Notes under the pieces: model-generated | Database searches by the model: none | What the model saw: only the letters and a program-made list of their open reading frames with translations | Told to the model about the DNA's origin: nothing | Translations under genes and position numbers: made by a program | Shown: positions 622-60,846 of the stretch, one piece after another | How the letters are laid out: each line of letters begins with the position of its first letter | Position numbering within the stretch: the stretch's first letter is position 1 | NCBI GenBank assembly: GCA_030528485.1 | Contig: JAUMYU010000001.1 | Span: 273-64,272 of the forward strand | Direction of reading: 5' to 3' | From: Comamonadaceae bacterium | GTDB lineage: Bacteria > Pseudomonadota > Gammaproteobacteria > Burkholderiales > Burkholderiaceae_C | DNA: 64,000 nt

Positions 622-696
622 TTCTAATTCAAAAGGAAATAAAAATGCCTTGTTTCGGCATGTTGGTATTCAAATGATTTTTACTTTGTTATGTAA
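622..696 (+). repeat. AT-rich inverted-arm element, copy 1 (75 bp)
   Basis: TTCTAATTCAAA...TGTTTCGGCA...TTTGTTATGTAA, flanked by the 10-bp direct repeat ATAATGGCAT (611-620 and 699-708). Confidence 0.9.
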
Positions 697-713
697 ATAT
701 AATGGCATGGCGC

Positions 714-1991
714 TCAGTCCTGGCCGGTGATGGTGAGGCGGGTGCCTTCGGCGATTTGGTCGTCGGGCTGGAGGATGACGAGCTCGCCTTCGCCCAGGCC
801 CTGGGTGATTTGGGCGCTGGTGTCCGAGCGCAGGCCGATTTGCACGGGGGTGGCGCGGGCGCGGGGGGCGCGCGATTGGGGGCCGTCCACGCGATAGACG
901 CTCCAGCCGCCCGCATCGCCTTCGGCGCTGGCGCGCCCTGTGCCGGGGGTGCGAAAAAGGGCGCTGCCAGGCACTTGCAGGGCGCTGGGCAGTTGGTGGG
1001 TGATGAATTCCACGTCCACACGGTAGGCGTCGCCCAGCGCGGCCCATTGGCTGCGGGGGCTGTCGAAGTCGAGGATGACGCGGGTGCGCTGCTCTTGCAC
1101 GCCCAGGGCGGAGGTTTTGGTAAAGCCGCCCGGTTCAATGCTGCGCACGCGCGCGTGCAGGGTGTGAGGGCCGCCCCAGCGCAGGATGCGCGCGGGCATG
1201 CCGGGGGCCAGGCGTACGGCATCGGCGGAGAGGACTTCGACTTCAATTTCCAGCTCGGCGGGGTCGCCGATTTCCAGCAAGGTTTCGCCCGCAGCGACGG
1301 GGGCGGCGCTTTCGCGCAGGCGGCGCAGCACGAGGCCGTCGGCGGGGGCGGTGATGGGCAGGGAGCGGGGCTGGGCGTTGGCATTGGCGGCTGGGGTTGG
1401 GGTTTGCCCTTCCAGCAGTTGCGCCTGGGCGATGCGGATGCGCTCTTGCGCGCTGCGTTCTTCGGCGCGGGCGGCGGCCAGGTTGGCGCGGGTGGTGTCG
1501 GCGCGGGTGCGGGCCTGGTCGAGCTGCTCGCGCGAGGCCGCGCCTGCGGCTTGCAGCGGGGTGAGGCGGTCGAGGTCGGCGCGGGCCTGGCGCTGGGCGG
1601 CCTGGGCGGCGGCGGTGTGTTGTTGAGCGGCGGTCAGGGCGGCCTGGGCGGCGCGCACCTGGGCCTGGGCCTGGCTGCGCGAGCGCACATCCAGCAAGGC
1701 GGCGCTGGCCGGTTCGATGTACGCCAGGGCGTCGCCCGCGCGCACGCGCTCGCCTGGTTGCAAGGCGATGCGCCGCAGGGTGCCGGAGACGGGGGCGGCG
1801 ATGAGGTAACGCTGCTTGAGGCGGGTTTTGCCTTCTTCGGTGAAGGTGACTTCCAGCGGCGCTTGCACGGCTTTGGCGGTGGTGACGAGTTGGGCGTCTT
1901 CGCGCAGGGTGAAGAAAACCAGGGCGAATGCGGCGCCCAGGCCCAGCACGGTGGTGAGGATTTTGCTTGTCGGGAACTTGCGTTGGGTCAT
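714..1991 (-). CDS. Efflux periplasmic adaptor (HlyD/MacA-like membrane fusion protein)
   Basis: N-terminal TM segment, lipoyl half-motifs (IAAPVSG, ITAPADG), coiled coil; downstream of an ABC permease and ATPase. Confidence 0.85.
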   Translation of the reverse strand: MTQRKFPTSKILTTVLGLGAAFALVFFTLREDAQLVTTAKAVQAPLEVTFTEEGKTRLKQRYLIAAPVSGTLRRIALQPGERVRAGDALAYIEPASAALLDVRSRSQAQAQVRAAQAALTAAQQHTAAAQAAQRQARADLDRLTPLQAAGAASREQLDQARTRADTTRANLAAARAEERSAQERIRIAQAQLLEGQTPTPAANANAQPRSLPITAPADGLVLRRLRESAAPVAAGETLLEIGDPAELEIEVEVLSADAVRLAPGMPARILRWGGPHTLHARVRSIEPGGFTKTSALGVQEQRTRVILDFDSPRSQWAALGDAYRVDVEFITHQLPSALQVPGSALFRTPGTGRASAEGDAGGWSVYRVDGPQSRAPRARATPVQIGLRSDTSAQITQGLGEGELVILQPDDQIAEGTRLTITGQD

Positions 1992-2017
1992 GGCGGAGGT
2001 CTTGTCGGCAATGAGTT

Positions 2018-2102
2018 TTGCAATTCAATAGGGTGTTTATGTTTTCAATTTTCGATTTGCATGTTGCCTAAATCAATCGATGATATTTCCTTTGATTTGT
2101 AA
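2018..2102 (-). repeat. AT-rich inverted-arm element, copy 2 (85 bp variant)
   Basis: Reverse complement TTACAAATCAAAGGAAAT...TTTAGGCA...ATTGAATTGCAA; distal half 11 bp longer than in the other copies. Confidence 0.75.
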
Positions 2103-2110
2103 TAATGGGG

Positions 2111-4477
2111 CTATTCACGCGTTTTGAGCACGCCGATGAGGTCGAGCCGGCGCACGCGCCAGTTCACGGCCAGGGCGGAGAGGGTGGCGCTGATGACGGT
2201 GACCAGCGAGGGGAAGGCGTAGGTGGCGGCGCTCATGACCAGCGGGATGCGGAACAGCTCTGACTGCATGCTTTCGGTGATGAACAGGGTGAGCGCGTAG
2301 CCTGCGGCCACGCCCAGGGGCAGGGCGGCGATGACGAGCAAGACCAGCTCGCCGATGAGGATGTAGCTGACCTCGCCTTTGGAAAAGCCCAGCACGCGCA
2401 GACTGGCCAGCTCGCGGCTGCGCTCGGAGAGGGACATGCGCGCGGAGTTGTAAACGACGCCGAAGTTGACGATCACCCCCATGAGCACGGCCATCATGGT
2501 GAACAGGCCGGTGAATTCGCCAATGCTTTTGCGGTAGTTGCGCAGGGCTTCGCGGTGCGATTGCGCGCCGCGCACCAGCGGGCGGCCATCGAGCGTGTGC
2601 AGCACGGCGTTTTCGGCGCGGGAATCGATGGTGAGGAAGGCGCCGCTGATGCGCTCGCCTTCGCCCAGGGCGCGGTTGAGGGCGTCCAGCTCCATATAGG
2701 CGTTCATGCCCAGCAGCTCGTTGACCAGCCGCACCACGGGCAGGCGCAGGCGCGGCTGACGGCCTTCGAGGACTTCGACTTCGACCCAATCGCCCAGGCC
2801 CACGCCGAGTTTTTGCGCCAGGTAGCTGCCCAGCACCAGGCCGGAGGCAGGTATCTCCAGCGGGCGCAGCTTTTGGTCCACGGGGCGGCGCAACAGGCTG
2901 CCAGCGGGCAGCCCTTCGATGCTGGTGAGCACTTCGCGCTGCGCTTGGCGGATGCGCACAGCCACCATGCGCATGCCTTCGGCCTGGTACACGCCGGGGA
3001 TGGCGCGCAGCTCGTCAAGGGCGCGCGGCGGGCGCGCTTCGGTGAAGTTGACGGAGATGTCGTACTGCCGCGCCAGGCGAAATTCCAGCGCGAGGATGTG
3101 GTTGATGGAGTTGGTCTGGAATTTGGACATCATGACGATGCCGCTGGCGACGGCCAGGCCGAGGATGGTGAGCAGAGCTTTGATGGGGCGGCGCTCAATT
3201 TGGCGCAGCACCATGCGCGTGGGCTGGGAAAGCCAGCGCGTCAGGCCCAGGCGCTCCATCCAGGTGCGGCGGTAGCGTTCGGGCGCCAGCGGGCGCATGG
3301 CCTGGGCCACAGGCTCGGCCGCAGCGCCAAAAACGGCGTGGCCCGTGCCTGCCAGCGCGGCGATGAGGCTGATGGCCGCGCCGGTGAGCACGACGCGGGC
3401 GTTGAGGGAGAAGGCCAGGTAGGGGAAGCGGAAGTTTTCCTGGTATAGCGCCGAGAGGTGGATGCCCAGCCAAATGCCAAATAAAACGCCCAGCACGATG
3501 CCCAGCAGGCAAATGAGGCTGACGATGAGGGCGTAATGCAGCGCGACTTGCCTGGTGGAGTAGCCAAAGGCTTTGAGGATGGCGATCTGGTCGCGCTGCA
3601 TGCCGATGAGGCGCTTGAAGACGACATTGAGCAAAAAGGCGGCCACAGCCAGGAAGATGGCAGGAAAGATCCGCGCCATGGTGGAGAGCTGGCGCAGCTC
3701 CTCATGCAGGAAGCGGTAGGAGAGCTGCTCCATGCGGCCCATGGCGCCCAGGCCGCCGTAGCGGGCGAGGGTGCGGTTGACCGCGTCGATGACGTCTTGC
3801 TCGTGGGCGCCGGGGCCGAGGCGGAAAACGGCCTGGTTGAAAGCGCCTTCCATATCCATGGCGGCGGCCAGGGCATGCCGTGGCGCCCAGACGATGGCGT
3901 AACGCTTGTAGTCGGGGAACAGGGCGCCGTGCGCGATTTGGTTGAGGTGCTCGGCAGAGGTGGCTATGCCGGCGATCTTGAACCACTGCGCGCGCCCGCG
4001 GATGGTGATGCGCAGCCTTGCGCCCGGGGTGAGCTGGTGCGCCTGGGCAAAGCCATCGCTGATGAGAACTTCGTCTTGCGCGCCCGGGGCCATCATGCGG
4101 CCGGCGCGCAGGTACAGCAGGTTTTGCCGCGGATGGGCATCGTCGGGCAGGGATTGCATCAGCGCCAGCGCCGGCTCGCCAAAGCCGGGTATCTGGATTT
4201 TGGCGTTGGCGACGATGCGTGGCTCGACTTCGACCACGCCGGGAATTTCGCCCAGTTGCTGCGCCACGGAAAGGGGCGCGCGTGTGATGTGCGCCCACAG
4301 GTGCGAAAAGCGCTGCTGCTGGTAGAGCTGCGCGCGTGTGTAGCTGAGCGAGTCCAGCGTGGCTTGCGACATGACCAGCATGGCGATGCCTGCCGCGATG
4401 ACCAGCGCAATGGCCAGGGCCTGGCCGCGGATCAGCCAAAGGTCGCGCAGGGCTTTGCGGTGCAGGGCGTTCAGCAT
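2111..4477 (-). CDS. ABC transporter permease, FtsX/MacB family (duplicated domains)
   Basis: 788 aa with two FtsX-like halves ([23 protein letters not shown]). Confidence 0.88.
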
Positions 4478-60071: not shown

Positions 60072-60095
60072 GGCCAGGCCGCCGGCGCACAGGCC

Positions 60096-60497
60096 ATGAT
60101 GGATGCCGCGCCCTACGCGGGCGACATCACCCCGGAGACGGCTTGGCAGTGGGCCACGGCGGGCCAGGCCGTCATCATTGACGTGCGCACCCATGCTGAG
60201 TTGGTGTGGGTTGGTCAGGTGCCTGGCGCGCGCTCGGTGCCTTGGAGCCAGTGGCCTGACATGGCATTTAACGCCGATTTTGATGCGCAATTGCGCGCTG
60301 CTGCACCGCCCGACAAGAAAATCCTGATGTTATGCCGCAGTGGCGGTCGCTCGGTGGCAGCCGCTGCGCGTGCGGCGGCATTGGGATTTGAGGCTTTTAA
60401 TATTCTGGAAGGTTTTGAAGGCAGTTTGGACAGAAATGGCCATCGCGGCACGCAAAATGGCTGGCGTTACCGGGGCTTGCCTTGGATTCAGTTTTGA
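60096..60497 (+). CDS. Rhodanese-like domain protein
   Basis: IDVRTHAE, LCRSGGRS, NILEGFEG, GWRYRGLPW. Confidence 0.88.
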   Translation: MMDAAPYAGDITPETAWQWATAGQAVIIDVRTHAELVWVGQVPGARSVPWSQWPDMAFNADFDAQLRAAAPPDKKILMLCRSGGRSVAAAARAAALGFEAFNILEGFEGSLDRNGHRGTQNGWRYRGLPWIQF

Positions 60498-60554
60498 ATG
60501 GCGCAGTTGTGCATAGGGCTTGCGGCGGTTTGAGCCGATTCAACCGGAAAAATC

Positions 60555-60594
60555 AAGAAAACCCAGGCTTGTGTTTGGCCTGGGTTTTCTTTTT
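60555..60594. terminator. Bidirectional terminator
   Basis: AAGAAAACCCAGGC-loop-GCCTGGGTTTTCTT followed by TTT. Confidence 0.75.
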
Positions 60595-60772
60595 GCCCAT
60601 TATTTTCGGGCTGGGGATTTTTGCCGCATTTTCCTTTTGCGCAGGGAAGGCCGATTGAAAATCGGGCTGCGCCTTCGGGATGCGATTTTCCCCATCGGGC
60701 CCCTCAAGGATGCTTTGCGTGCATTCAGGCCGGGTACGGCTGAGCAGGGCGGTATTTGCCCAAAGGGGAGAA

Positions 60773-60846
60773 TTACAATTCAAAGTAAATTTGACTTATT
60801 ACCTATGTTGCCGAAAAAGGCATATTTTTTTGCTTTTGATTTGTAA
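60773..60846 (-). repeat. AT-rich inverted-arm element, copy 13 (74 bp)
   Basis: Reverse complement TTACAAATCAAAAG...TTTTCGGCA...TTTGAATTGTAA. Confidence 0.9.

Follow-up and report, generated by a model that had tools for sequence, protein, structure and literature searches.

An undescribed 75-base intergenic DNA site at the centre of a silent-site G+C gradient in a Comamonadaceae bacterium and its sister species

The chromosomes of this bacterium and its sister species carry an undescribed 75-base intergenic site, and silent-site G+C falls from 0.91 in DNA adjoining a copy to 0.62 past 6 kb, on both sides of the copies, within genes, and in non-coding DNA. Our leading explanation, which is plausible but short of probable, is that the site licenses homologous recombination of DNA within about 3–5 kb, with the G+C halo as its footprint. 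Specifically, the site may be an uptake signal for natural transformation, which is possible if rather doubtful, or it may serve another site-dependent recombination route (a packaging, secretion, or nicking site), which is improbable.

The window (i.e., the whole 64-kb stretch of DNA that was analyzed) holds 13 copies, with all starts and strands as originally predicted. A profile built from these copies recovered the same 13 loci at an E-value of ≤1.6e-10, and the next locus did not fall below 1.6; weaker matches in the window were the same 13 loci on the opposite strand. The copies are located at 622–696 (+; copy 1, 75 bp, following the stop of its right-hand neighbor, the minus-strand gene 714–1991), 2018–2102 (−; copy 2), 18567–18640 (+; copy 3, 74 bp, the right edge of a 16.5-kb copy-free stretch), 21651–21724 (+; copy 4, 74 bp, directly adjoining the stop codon of gene 21725–24733), 25173–25247 (−; copy 5, 75 bp, convergent gap), 27123–27196 (+; copy 6, 74 bp, divergent gap), 32294–32367 (+; copy 7, 74 bp, its first base directly after the upstream stop codon), 34158–34230 (+; copy 8, 73 bp, convergent gap), 36711–36784 (−; copy 9, 74 bp), 44132–44206 (−; copy 10, 75 bp), 45933–46007 (−; copy 11, 75 bp, with the 17 G+C counted originally), 55749–55823 (+; copy 12, 75 bp, the top score among window copies), and 60773–60846 (−; copy 13, 74 bp). 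The length of ~74 bp given at first suits every copy (73–75 bp) except copy 2, an 85-bp, +10-bp variant with an extra turn between the core and the right arm and a weak score. Likewise, the GGCA that had been called invariant is present in all 13 window copies, but genome-wide its GGC is conserved at 98–99% and its A at only 88%.

The observation made in the window is real, and the family is larger than first reported. A refined profile found 562 loci at E ≤ 0.01 in the source assembly (G000; 2.36 Mb, 80.5% complete) and 0 loci at E ≤ 1 when that assembly was reversed, indicating that the family is not a product of chance. Hundreds of copies per genome had been anticipated; ~560 intergenic sites of 74–75 bp, one per ~4 kb, were found, with 275 of 564 copies on the plus strand and 289 on the minus strand. 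An Rfam scan of the window returned 0 matches. Among 10 genomes of the genus and 150 of the family, the high copy number is seen only in G000 and the sister genome (G009; 99% complete, of which ~85% was read).

The repeat comprises two inverted arms, TT-N5-TCAA and TTGA-N5-AA, conserved at 94–100% and flanking a non-coding core as terminal inverted repeats, and a nearly invariant off-centre TTTYGGCA within that core; about a quarter of its positions are strongly conserved. Spacing inside copies and between tandem copies varies in 10-bp steps, and the key bases of each copy are kept at 97–99%. In coding DNA, the core word is not enriched (106 occurrences vs 175 for the reversed word). Similarity among 531 copies reaches 90% for the best pair (nearest-neighbor median, 81%), with no near-identical pair. 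An RNA hairpin model was rejected, since there is almost no base-pair covariation between the arms (a pairing excess of just 0.10 over 39 arm pairs). This value also speaks against a clearly unlikely explanation in which the copies are an old, immobile MITE- or REP-like repeat retained for the stability or termination of transcripts at their ends; long core operons, from which it is excluded, would have lost G+C in this lineage for an unrelated reason, so that the gradient would be a by-product. Inverted ends, placement 3′ of genes, and both orientations are typical of such repeats as PMC3184786 describes them; copies fold slightly better than two-copy chimeras (−15.2 vs −13.3 kcal/mol, 150 each, a small excess), and a few copies have turned into perfect hairpins, but steps of 10 bp would be meaningless for an RNA stem. 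Given the nearly invariant arms and core, the 10-bp steps, the low covariation, the lack of near-identical copies, and the sites shared between genomes (see below), the repeat is a fixed and individually conserved double-stranded-DNA site rather than an active MITE, a REP, or an RNA hairpin. The multi-subsite protein-binding site proposed at the outset is thus supported by position-specific conservation with little arm covariation, by the spacing steps, and by purifying-type conservation of orthologous copies; the candidate protein contacts are likely the two inverted arms and the off-centre core, on one face of the helix.

Counted by gene pair, copies occupy 183 of 283 convergent, 316 of 1310 tandem, and 40 of 279 divergent gaps. 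Because divergent gaps are avoided and convergent gaps filled, the global regulator suggested originally is unlikely. Only 6 of 564 copies lie inside called genes (the calls were made within this analysis and include some wrong-strand ORFs, against which the 606-gene ortholog set used below was filtered), copies are commonly directly behind stop codons, and their orientation to genes is symmetric (162 vs 154). The first 40 kb of a prophage contig (C6 of G009) contain 0 copies. The repeat resembles REP/BIME and REPIN-RAYT systems in being intergenic, behind stops, enriched in convergent gaps, occasionally grouped in tandem, and a candidate gyrase- or IHF-type site. It differs from REP/BIME, a G+C-rich stem-loop, in its mean G+C of 28.5%, and from both systems in lacking covariation, a RAYT, and near-identical copies.

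Next, we consider origin and mobility. Orthologous sites are common to G000 and G009 in 406 of 407 and 399 of 400 cases, and none of these 407 and 400 two-sided comparisons yielded a clean empty site. No target site duplication emerged from 48 boundary/length tests on 230 copies (best, 10 vs 4.8 ± 1.8 for 4 bp), although decay could have erased old ones. The search for a transposase element with the same ends gave 7 orphan arms against 827 arm matches in copies in G000, and 9 against 665 in the read part of G009. The old domesticated MITE of the original prediction is still conceivable as an origin, but target duplication, empty site, young copy, and matching transposase were all not found, and the first three of these absences also count against the transcript-end role. 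Bacterial MITEs include Correia, ERIC, and RUP; the repeat is like them in its length of <200 bp, its terminal inverted repeats around a non-coding core, and its position 3′ of genes, and unlike them in these same four absences and in a length quantized in helical turns. Orthologous copies differ by 13.9% vs 8.5% at four-fold sites, A/T columns being slow and C/T columns fast, a pattern that fits ordinary point mutation and led us to reject hypermutability of copies or conversion between them. A gene cassette model was also rejected: unlike integron attC sites and cassettes, the copies are symmetric in orientation, no clean in-copy junction occurs among the listed cases of 18 indels near copies, and the tyrosine recombinase search (see below) gave no cognate integrase. 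Blocks of the relative G005 that end at G000/G009 copies resembled empty sites, but whole intergenic spacers differ there.

Since some copying in the past is needed to explain 560 long sites, and tandem copies in helical phase exist, the copies could be what a nuclease or recombinase, selfish or domesticated, recognizes (cf. REPIN-RAYT); its gene would be flanked by copies and would still be spreading them slowly. We regard this as very improbable, considering the near-complete sharing of sites as well as the gene content. Neither the RAYT Y1 transposase (PF01797) nor a GxxExxY nuclease is found in G000, G005, G007, G008, or G009; the only two tyrosine recombinases of G009 are both matched in the other four genomes; DUF559 is present in G000 but absent from G009; and the genes bracketed by copies, among those listed, are ordinary, with no fast-evolving one among 1303 ortholog pairs. 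With G000 at 80.5% completeness and ~85% of G009 read, a partner gene can have been missed.

In the window's copy-free stretch (2103–18566), four-fold-site G+C is 0.93 in the gene at 2111–4477 and drops to 0.46–0.62 in genes between 8042 and 15633; in the copy-bearing region, genes between 21725 and 44103 show 0.86–0.97. The gene at 12.4–13.9 kb and its two neighbors have orthologs in G005 and G007 at 0.94–1.0. Between copies 3 and 4 of the window, four short genes reach only 0.69–0.78. Genome-wide, four-fold G+C declines from 0.889 to 0.622 in G000 and from 0.882 to 0.653 in G009, and among 606 cleaned orthologous genes from 0.912 to 0.615 (rho −0.49); of the 14 genes more than 6 kb away, 13 lie below 0.75. 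The slope is −1.5 points per kb within single genes (95% CI: −2.3 to −0.6; 794 genes) and negative in 13 of 13 G009 contigs (p < 0.05 in 9 of 13), and copy-free intergenic DNA goes from 0.62 to 0.55 with distance. C/T two-fold codons also show the gradient, which argues against a high-expression codon effect. To either side, the element has a similar reach (decay of 1.45 and 1.35 kb, with a floor of 0.61 and a ceiling of 0.90), and stronger isolated copies have higher surrounding G+C (0.869, 0.835, and 0.782 for 57, 60, and 16 copies).

With operon length, operon position, and distance to copy-free gaps in the model, the distance effect retains a z of −10.4, and none of the three is significant once copy distance is included. 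When copies were reshuffled among gaps of the same class, the observed slope was reached in 0 of 200 reshufflings in either genome. Roughly a third to 40% of the slope survived, and 18% of gene-level variance is explained by distance (9% when the four chosen stretches are omitted), as a transcript-end role with a by-product gradient would allow; against such a role, the gradient is also present within genes, within short operons, and in non-coding DNA. The fall is confined to the repeat-bearing lineage: at four loci chosen for low G+C and five G005 stretches, genes >5 kb from a copy have 0.61–0.63 in G009 vs 0.84–0.92 in G001, G003, G005, G007, and G016 (15–19 genes each). A pilMNOPQ-like locus is partly low in relatives also (0.44–0.83). 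Some copy-free stretches keep 0.88–0.96, several of which carry accessory genes or adjoin a copy in the other genome; the high-G+C infB region, for instance, is far from a copy in G009 and 35 bp from one in G000. Low-G+C genes far from copies look vertically inherited, and replacement of such operons from a distant donor is unlikely.

As to the cause of the halo, the main rival to recombination, which we consider unlikely, is that the copies act inside the cell, as places where gyrase, another topoisomerase, a nucleoid protein, or a repair enzyme loads, and that distant DNA is more single-stranded or less repaired, so that its cytosines deaminate and the halo is mutational. Torsion relief behind genes would suit the enrichment in convergent gaps and the position right behind stops, 10-bp phasing in and between copies would suit cooperative wrapping, and E. 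coli BIMEs bind gyrase and IHF according to PMC3184786. G+C loss is chiefly C-to-T on leading-strand genes, in keeping with deamination, but lagging-strand genes lose C and G about equally. Moreover, operon length and position add nothing beyond distance, relatives without the site keep high G+C in the same long operons, motifs of ung, mutS, mutL, mfd, and mutM are present in G009, and the 97–99% retention of key bases would be less expected for redundant torsion sites than under biased uptake.

The recombination role named in the original prediction gains indirect support from the gradient, the direct evidence being weak. G+C-keeping changes (C<>G, A<>T) are raised at 3–6 kb and not beyond 6 kb, the latter as a mutational halo would have it, and G+C-rich genes diverge alike (0.067 near vs 0.073 far), so relaxed G+C pressure alone may account for the higher silent divergence at a distance from copies. 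Proteins encoded far from copies do not evolve faster, and patchiness of G000–G009 divergence does not separate near from far (dispersion, 2.05 vs 2.11). Contig pieces from strains were compared with the window for one copy-free stretch, with the longest pieces only (16, 13, and 6) and in two comparisons with different likeness cut-offs. Divergence in the closest strain run was 1.53% near copies and 0.77% far, weakly disfavoring intracellular sites, and in two more distant runs 3.4% near and 6.0% far; per piece, none of the contrasts was significant (p = 0.30, 0.35, and 0.21). The direction of these differences, as gene flow would give, is suggestive.

If the site licenses recombination, only copy-bearing fragments would be taken up and recombined, recombination would hold G+C high through biased gene conversion or more efficient selection, and DNA beyond reach would drift to an A+T-biased mutational equilibrium. 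Biased uptake itself would keep each copy intact, as a molecular drive, and their place behind stop codons may reflect that coding DNA and promoters alike are unsuited to a 75-bp A+T-rich block. We raise, with reserve, the possibility that DNA self-recognition evolved independently a third time here, as a 75-bp helically phased dyad that limits homologous recombination to a few kb around ~600 fixed sites, with the other core DNA effectively clonal and its silent G+C in decay from 90% to about 60%.

The repeat is like the DUS of Neisseriaceae and the USS of Pasteurellaceae in having hundreds of conserved core-chromosome copies in both orientations and a restricted lineage, in missing from the prophage contig, in its short core with A/T tracts (a composition described for USS in PMC7811141), and in a host with competence genes. 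According to PMC2397512, DUS are spaced at intervals that match the length of conversion fragments and do not occur in newly acquired genes. Unlike these 10–30-bp, one-sided motifs, the repeat is 75 bp with two inverted arms; known uptake signals, short and 34.5–65% inside genes by the figures in PMC2817400, also contrast with its near absence from genes (6/564). Its ~4-kb spacing means that, unlike for DUS/USS, stretches out of reach exist, and no G+C halo is described for DUS/USS in the literature searched. Motifs or families of ComEC, ComEA, a ComP-family pilin, DprA, ComM, and RecA occur in G000 and G009, but the competence genes are found equally in relatives that lack the repeat (PF16732, PF03772, and PF12836 also in G001, G005, and G007), and minor pilins show no net-charge or obvious sequence change. 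By-eye inspection of 165 basic proteins common to G000 and G009 gave no binding candidate. Regarding other routes, a search for the PF03432 relaxase found none; terminase matches exist in both genomes, the G009 one within a prophage-like contig, with no packaging cluster shown to be common to both.

In PMC11879095, 119 of 146 species show a positive correlation between G+C and recombination rate, and whether recombination holds up bacterial G+C, via biased gene conversion or selection, is presented as an open debate there and in PMC4866539. Here, one defined site predicts a 30-point silent G+C swing over 6 kb, with close relatives lacking the site as controls, which makes the question testable by moving or mutating one sequence. 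Should a third self-recognition system be the answer, the chromosome would be a ready map of recombination-driven G+C maintenance with the causal site known; an uptake signal would add to the two families with described sequence-specific uptake in the literature searched, with a new architecture; and a site for topology or repair would mean that a cis element sets local mutation bias, for which that literature holds no bacterial precedent. As at PRDM9-bound eukaryotic hot spots (PMC4866539), the motif lies at the centre of a local G+C rise; this is analogy only, as sequence and machinery are unrelated and the recombination role of the repeat is putative.

Finally, we searched outside these genomes. 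One copy queried by blastn against plasmids and phages had no match, viral contigs gave 8 pattern matches with 0 scoring as a full copy, and metagenome contigs gave 0 with a pattern matching 32 places in G000. A 401-genome pattern search carries little weight, its pattern having a misfit spacing (11 matches in G000). An all-species genome scan found at least 113 stretches; among the 80 matches listed, 8 belong to Allofranklinella schreckenbergeri NML 97-0147, the only recurrent genome, and the others look like chance single matches.

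A profile made from the 13 intergenic, A+T-rich copies in the window returned these copies as its sole strong loci there, each at the place where the original prediction had put it. The proposed length of ~74 bp held for twelve of them (73 to 75 bp) but not for copy 2, which measures 85 bp. Hundreds of copies per genome had also been anticipated, and in the assembly holding the window (G000; 2.36 Mb, 80.5% complete, with the window on contig C33) the refined profile identified 562 loci at E ≤ 0.01; reading the assembly backwards as a control gave no locus at E ≤ 1. The repeat is real. 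In all, 564 copies in G000 scored at least 15 bits (275 on the (+) strand and 289 on the (−) strand), with a median spacing of 2.9 kb.

A strict pattern matched 67 sites in G000, 70 in G009 (a sister genome, ~93–95% identical to G000), 1 in one further relative, and none in 38 other relatives. The profile found 539 copies across the 2.37 Mb of G009 examined, 4 in the relative G005, and 1 each in the relatives G007 and G008, with no copy in 5 other genomes of the genus or in 149 genomes from other genera. Since the G005 copies are embedded in blocks ~92–98% identical to G000 or G009, they are passengers. In an all-species scan, Allofranklinella schreckenbergeri NML 97-0147 was the sole recurring genome among the matches listed. 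G005 carries many blocks that are 91–98% identical to G000/G009 against a background of 75–80% (loci L194, L196, and L197; G005 contigs C18 and C12), which point to recent gene exchange among these lineages, often of single genes with the spacers still different.

Across 537 copies, key bases of the left arm (TT-N5-TCAA), core (TTT-Y-GGC-A), and right arm (TTT...TTGA-N5-AA) were 88–100% conserved, spacer columns were unconstrained, and the arm inversion was centered on the C of the core. Covariation between the arms was almost nil (excess Watson-Crick pairing of 0.10 summed across 39 pairs), and real copies folded slightly better than chimeras of two copies. The arm-to-arm distance was 56–59 in 491 of the 513 arm pairs, 64–69 in 16 (67–68 in 13 of these), 77–78 in 2, and below the main class in 4, with no pair at 51–55, 60–63, or 70–76; the core-to-right-arm distance was 30–32 in 477 cases and 41–42 in 12. 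The +10 copies may share common descent; independent evidence for helical-turn steps came from direct tandem pairs less than 30 bp apart in G000, 18 of 20 of which were separated by 5–6, 15–17, or 24–26 bp. Spacing in helical turns of this kind would be expected if a protein reads the site from a single face of duplex DNA.

A few copies form perfect copy-specific hairpins (~−24 to −28 kcal/mol) in which the right side mirrors the left half, namely at G000 C33:64782 (just past the window end), C80:18977, and C27:12311, with orthologs in G009; in one of them, the two species differ by compensatory changes. These copies have likely been exapted as intrinsic terminators.

According to our own gene calls for G000, 183 copies lay between convergent genes (283 pairs), 316 in tandem gaps (1,310 pairs), 40 in divergent gaps (279 pairs), 19 at contig edges, and 6 within called genes. 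Orientation relative to genes was balanced (162 versus 154), and the median distance from the upstream stop to the copy in tandem gaps was 17 bp.

No two G000 copies were more than 90% identical. At orthologous sites with flanks on both sides, the repeat was present in the other genome in 406/407 and 399/400 cases (148 and 128 copies were not placeable); of the two exceptions, one is a degenerate copy and the other a larger deletion. Among 271 orthologous copy pairs, invariant columns differed by 0–5% and free columns by up to 39%. Judging from these shared sites and the near-constant invariant columns, therefore, the family is currently immobile, with every copy individually maintained. A search for a target duplication at the copies, for an element with ends like the repeat arms, and for a partner enzyme found none of these; that individually maintained copies belong to a nuclease-partnered element is, in our estimate, highly improbable.

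At G000 C97:1-725, a copy and a small gene separate what we take to be infB and rbfA, which abut at G009 C25:99980-100200. At G000 C11:6017-8157, a gene for a 555-aa secreted-type protein is flanked by two direct copies; the equivalent G009 site has a single copy and lacks the gene, with junctions outside the copies. A DUF559 gene at G000 C39:7058-7369 is absent from G009. A second, unrelated repeat (~165–280 bp, inverted ends; G009 C1:292186-292363 and C26:12174-12549; window near 41902-41972) varies in presence between G000, G009, and other strains, often adjoins a copy, and looks like an active MITE; both genomes carry ORFs that are presumably IS5-like transposases.

The repeat departs from DUS/USS in length and in presence within genes, from REP/BIME in having neither their G+C-rich stem nor RAYT, and from MITEs in having no duplication, young copies, or transposase, and it fails a defining feature of attC; because a defining feature failed in each case, we assign it to none of these classes. 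Literature searches, chiefly of non-subscription papers, that covered Allofranklinella genomes, Vandammella, conversion and uptake sequences, uptake in Comamonadaceae/Burkholderiales, and links of GC3 or G+C with repeats turned up no description of it, so it is undescribed as far as the literature was searched.

A large footprint in base composition, specific to this lineage, goes with the repeat, and we infer a mechanism for this footprint below. G+C at four-fold (silent) codon sites dropped away from the nearest copy, from 0.889 to 0.622 in G000 and from 0.882 to 0.653 in G009. In 606 cleaned ortholog pairs, it was 0.912 at 0–1 kb, 0.900 at 1–2 kb, 0.847 at 2–3 kb, 0.781 at 3–4.5 kb, 0.705 at 4.5–6 kb, and 0.615 beyond 6 kb; a decay fit gave a ceiling of 0.90 and a floor of 0.61, with similar reach on both sides of the copy. 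C/T two-fold codons and copy-free intergenic DNA (390 and 433 gaps) showed the gradient too, and it remained without the four stretches picked for follow-up (rho −0.24; 878 genes). It persisted within genes and after operon-structure controls, and it exceeded what reshuffling of copies among gaps gave, which still amounted to between one-third and 40% of the real slope. That the repeat is inert or acts at the RNA level, with the gradient confounded, is unlikely. In the window, values were 0.93 at 2–4 kb, 0.46–0.62 at 8–15.6 kb, and 0.86–0.97 at 21.7–44 kb, with a poorer match for four short genes between copies 3 and 4 (0.69–0.78). Counter to a simple distance rule, copy-free stretches of at least 9 kb ranged from 0.54 to 0.96; several of the high-G+C ones contain accessory genes, or the other genome has a copy there.

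Orthologs of far genes in five relatives without the repeat had values of 0.84–0.92 where G009 had 0.61–0.63 (four loci picked for low G+C and five G005 stretches, excluding genes >88% identical in DNA), and thus high G+C is ancestral and retained just near copies. One locus, which we take to be pilMNOPQ-like, was partly low in the relatives as well. Far genes showed the expected kinship and no excess amino-acid change.

Bacterial mutation is A/T-biased, and G+C correlates with recombination rate in most species through conversion bias or selection, as described in PMC11879095; the link is weaker in PMC4866539. Uptake signals preserve themselves through biased uptake, according to PMC2397512 and PMC7811141. 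In the ancestor, a G+C-maintaining force would have been uniform; if recombination has come to depend on a fixed site, this force would now reach only 3–5 kb around it. An uptake signal would create such dependence, working on both sides, and biased uptake would keep the site intact. The repeat most likely functions in the manner of DUS/USS. Site-dependent recombination at the copies is plausible, if somewhat short of probable; that the copies serve within it as an uptake signal is a more tentative proposal. Competence genes are present, yet they do not set the lineage with the repeat apart. Copies acting inside the cell as topology, nucleoid, or repair sites are a somewhat unlikely alternative. 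Regarding recombination at the copies, the closest strain run had 220 differences/14,358 bp near copies and 50/6,522 bp far, and a more distant run had 660/19,385 bp near and 759/12,736 bp far; these pieces fit gene flow near copies, but they stem from a single copy-free stretch and show no per-piece significance. G+C-keeping changes near versus far gave a mixed outcome.

Relative to two outgroups, G009 proteins have changed 1.2–1.5× faster than their G005 or G007 counterparts, with a net GARP-to-FYMINK residue shift, alike near copies and far from them (loci L248–L267). A presumably UvrA-like protein (window 21725-24733) is 83% and 82% identical to its counterparts in the relatives G004 and G001 versus 79–81% in G005, G007, and G008; two other tested genes differ, and this gene possibly has a mixed history. 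The genes at window 28656-31595, presumably pilT/pilU-like retraction ATPases, have four-fold G+C of 0.92–0.97. In G009, by contrast, the operons for pilus assembly and minor pilins occupy copy-free, low-G+C stretches. A G009 cluster at C25:85000-95000 (L059), which we take to be CRISPR-Cas type I-E-like, carries no copies and has no match in the G000 assembly.
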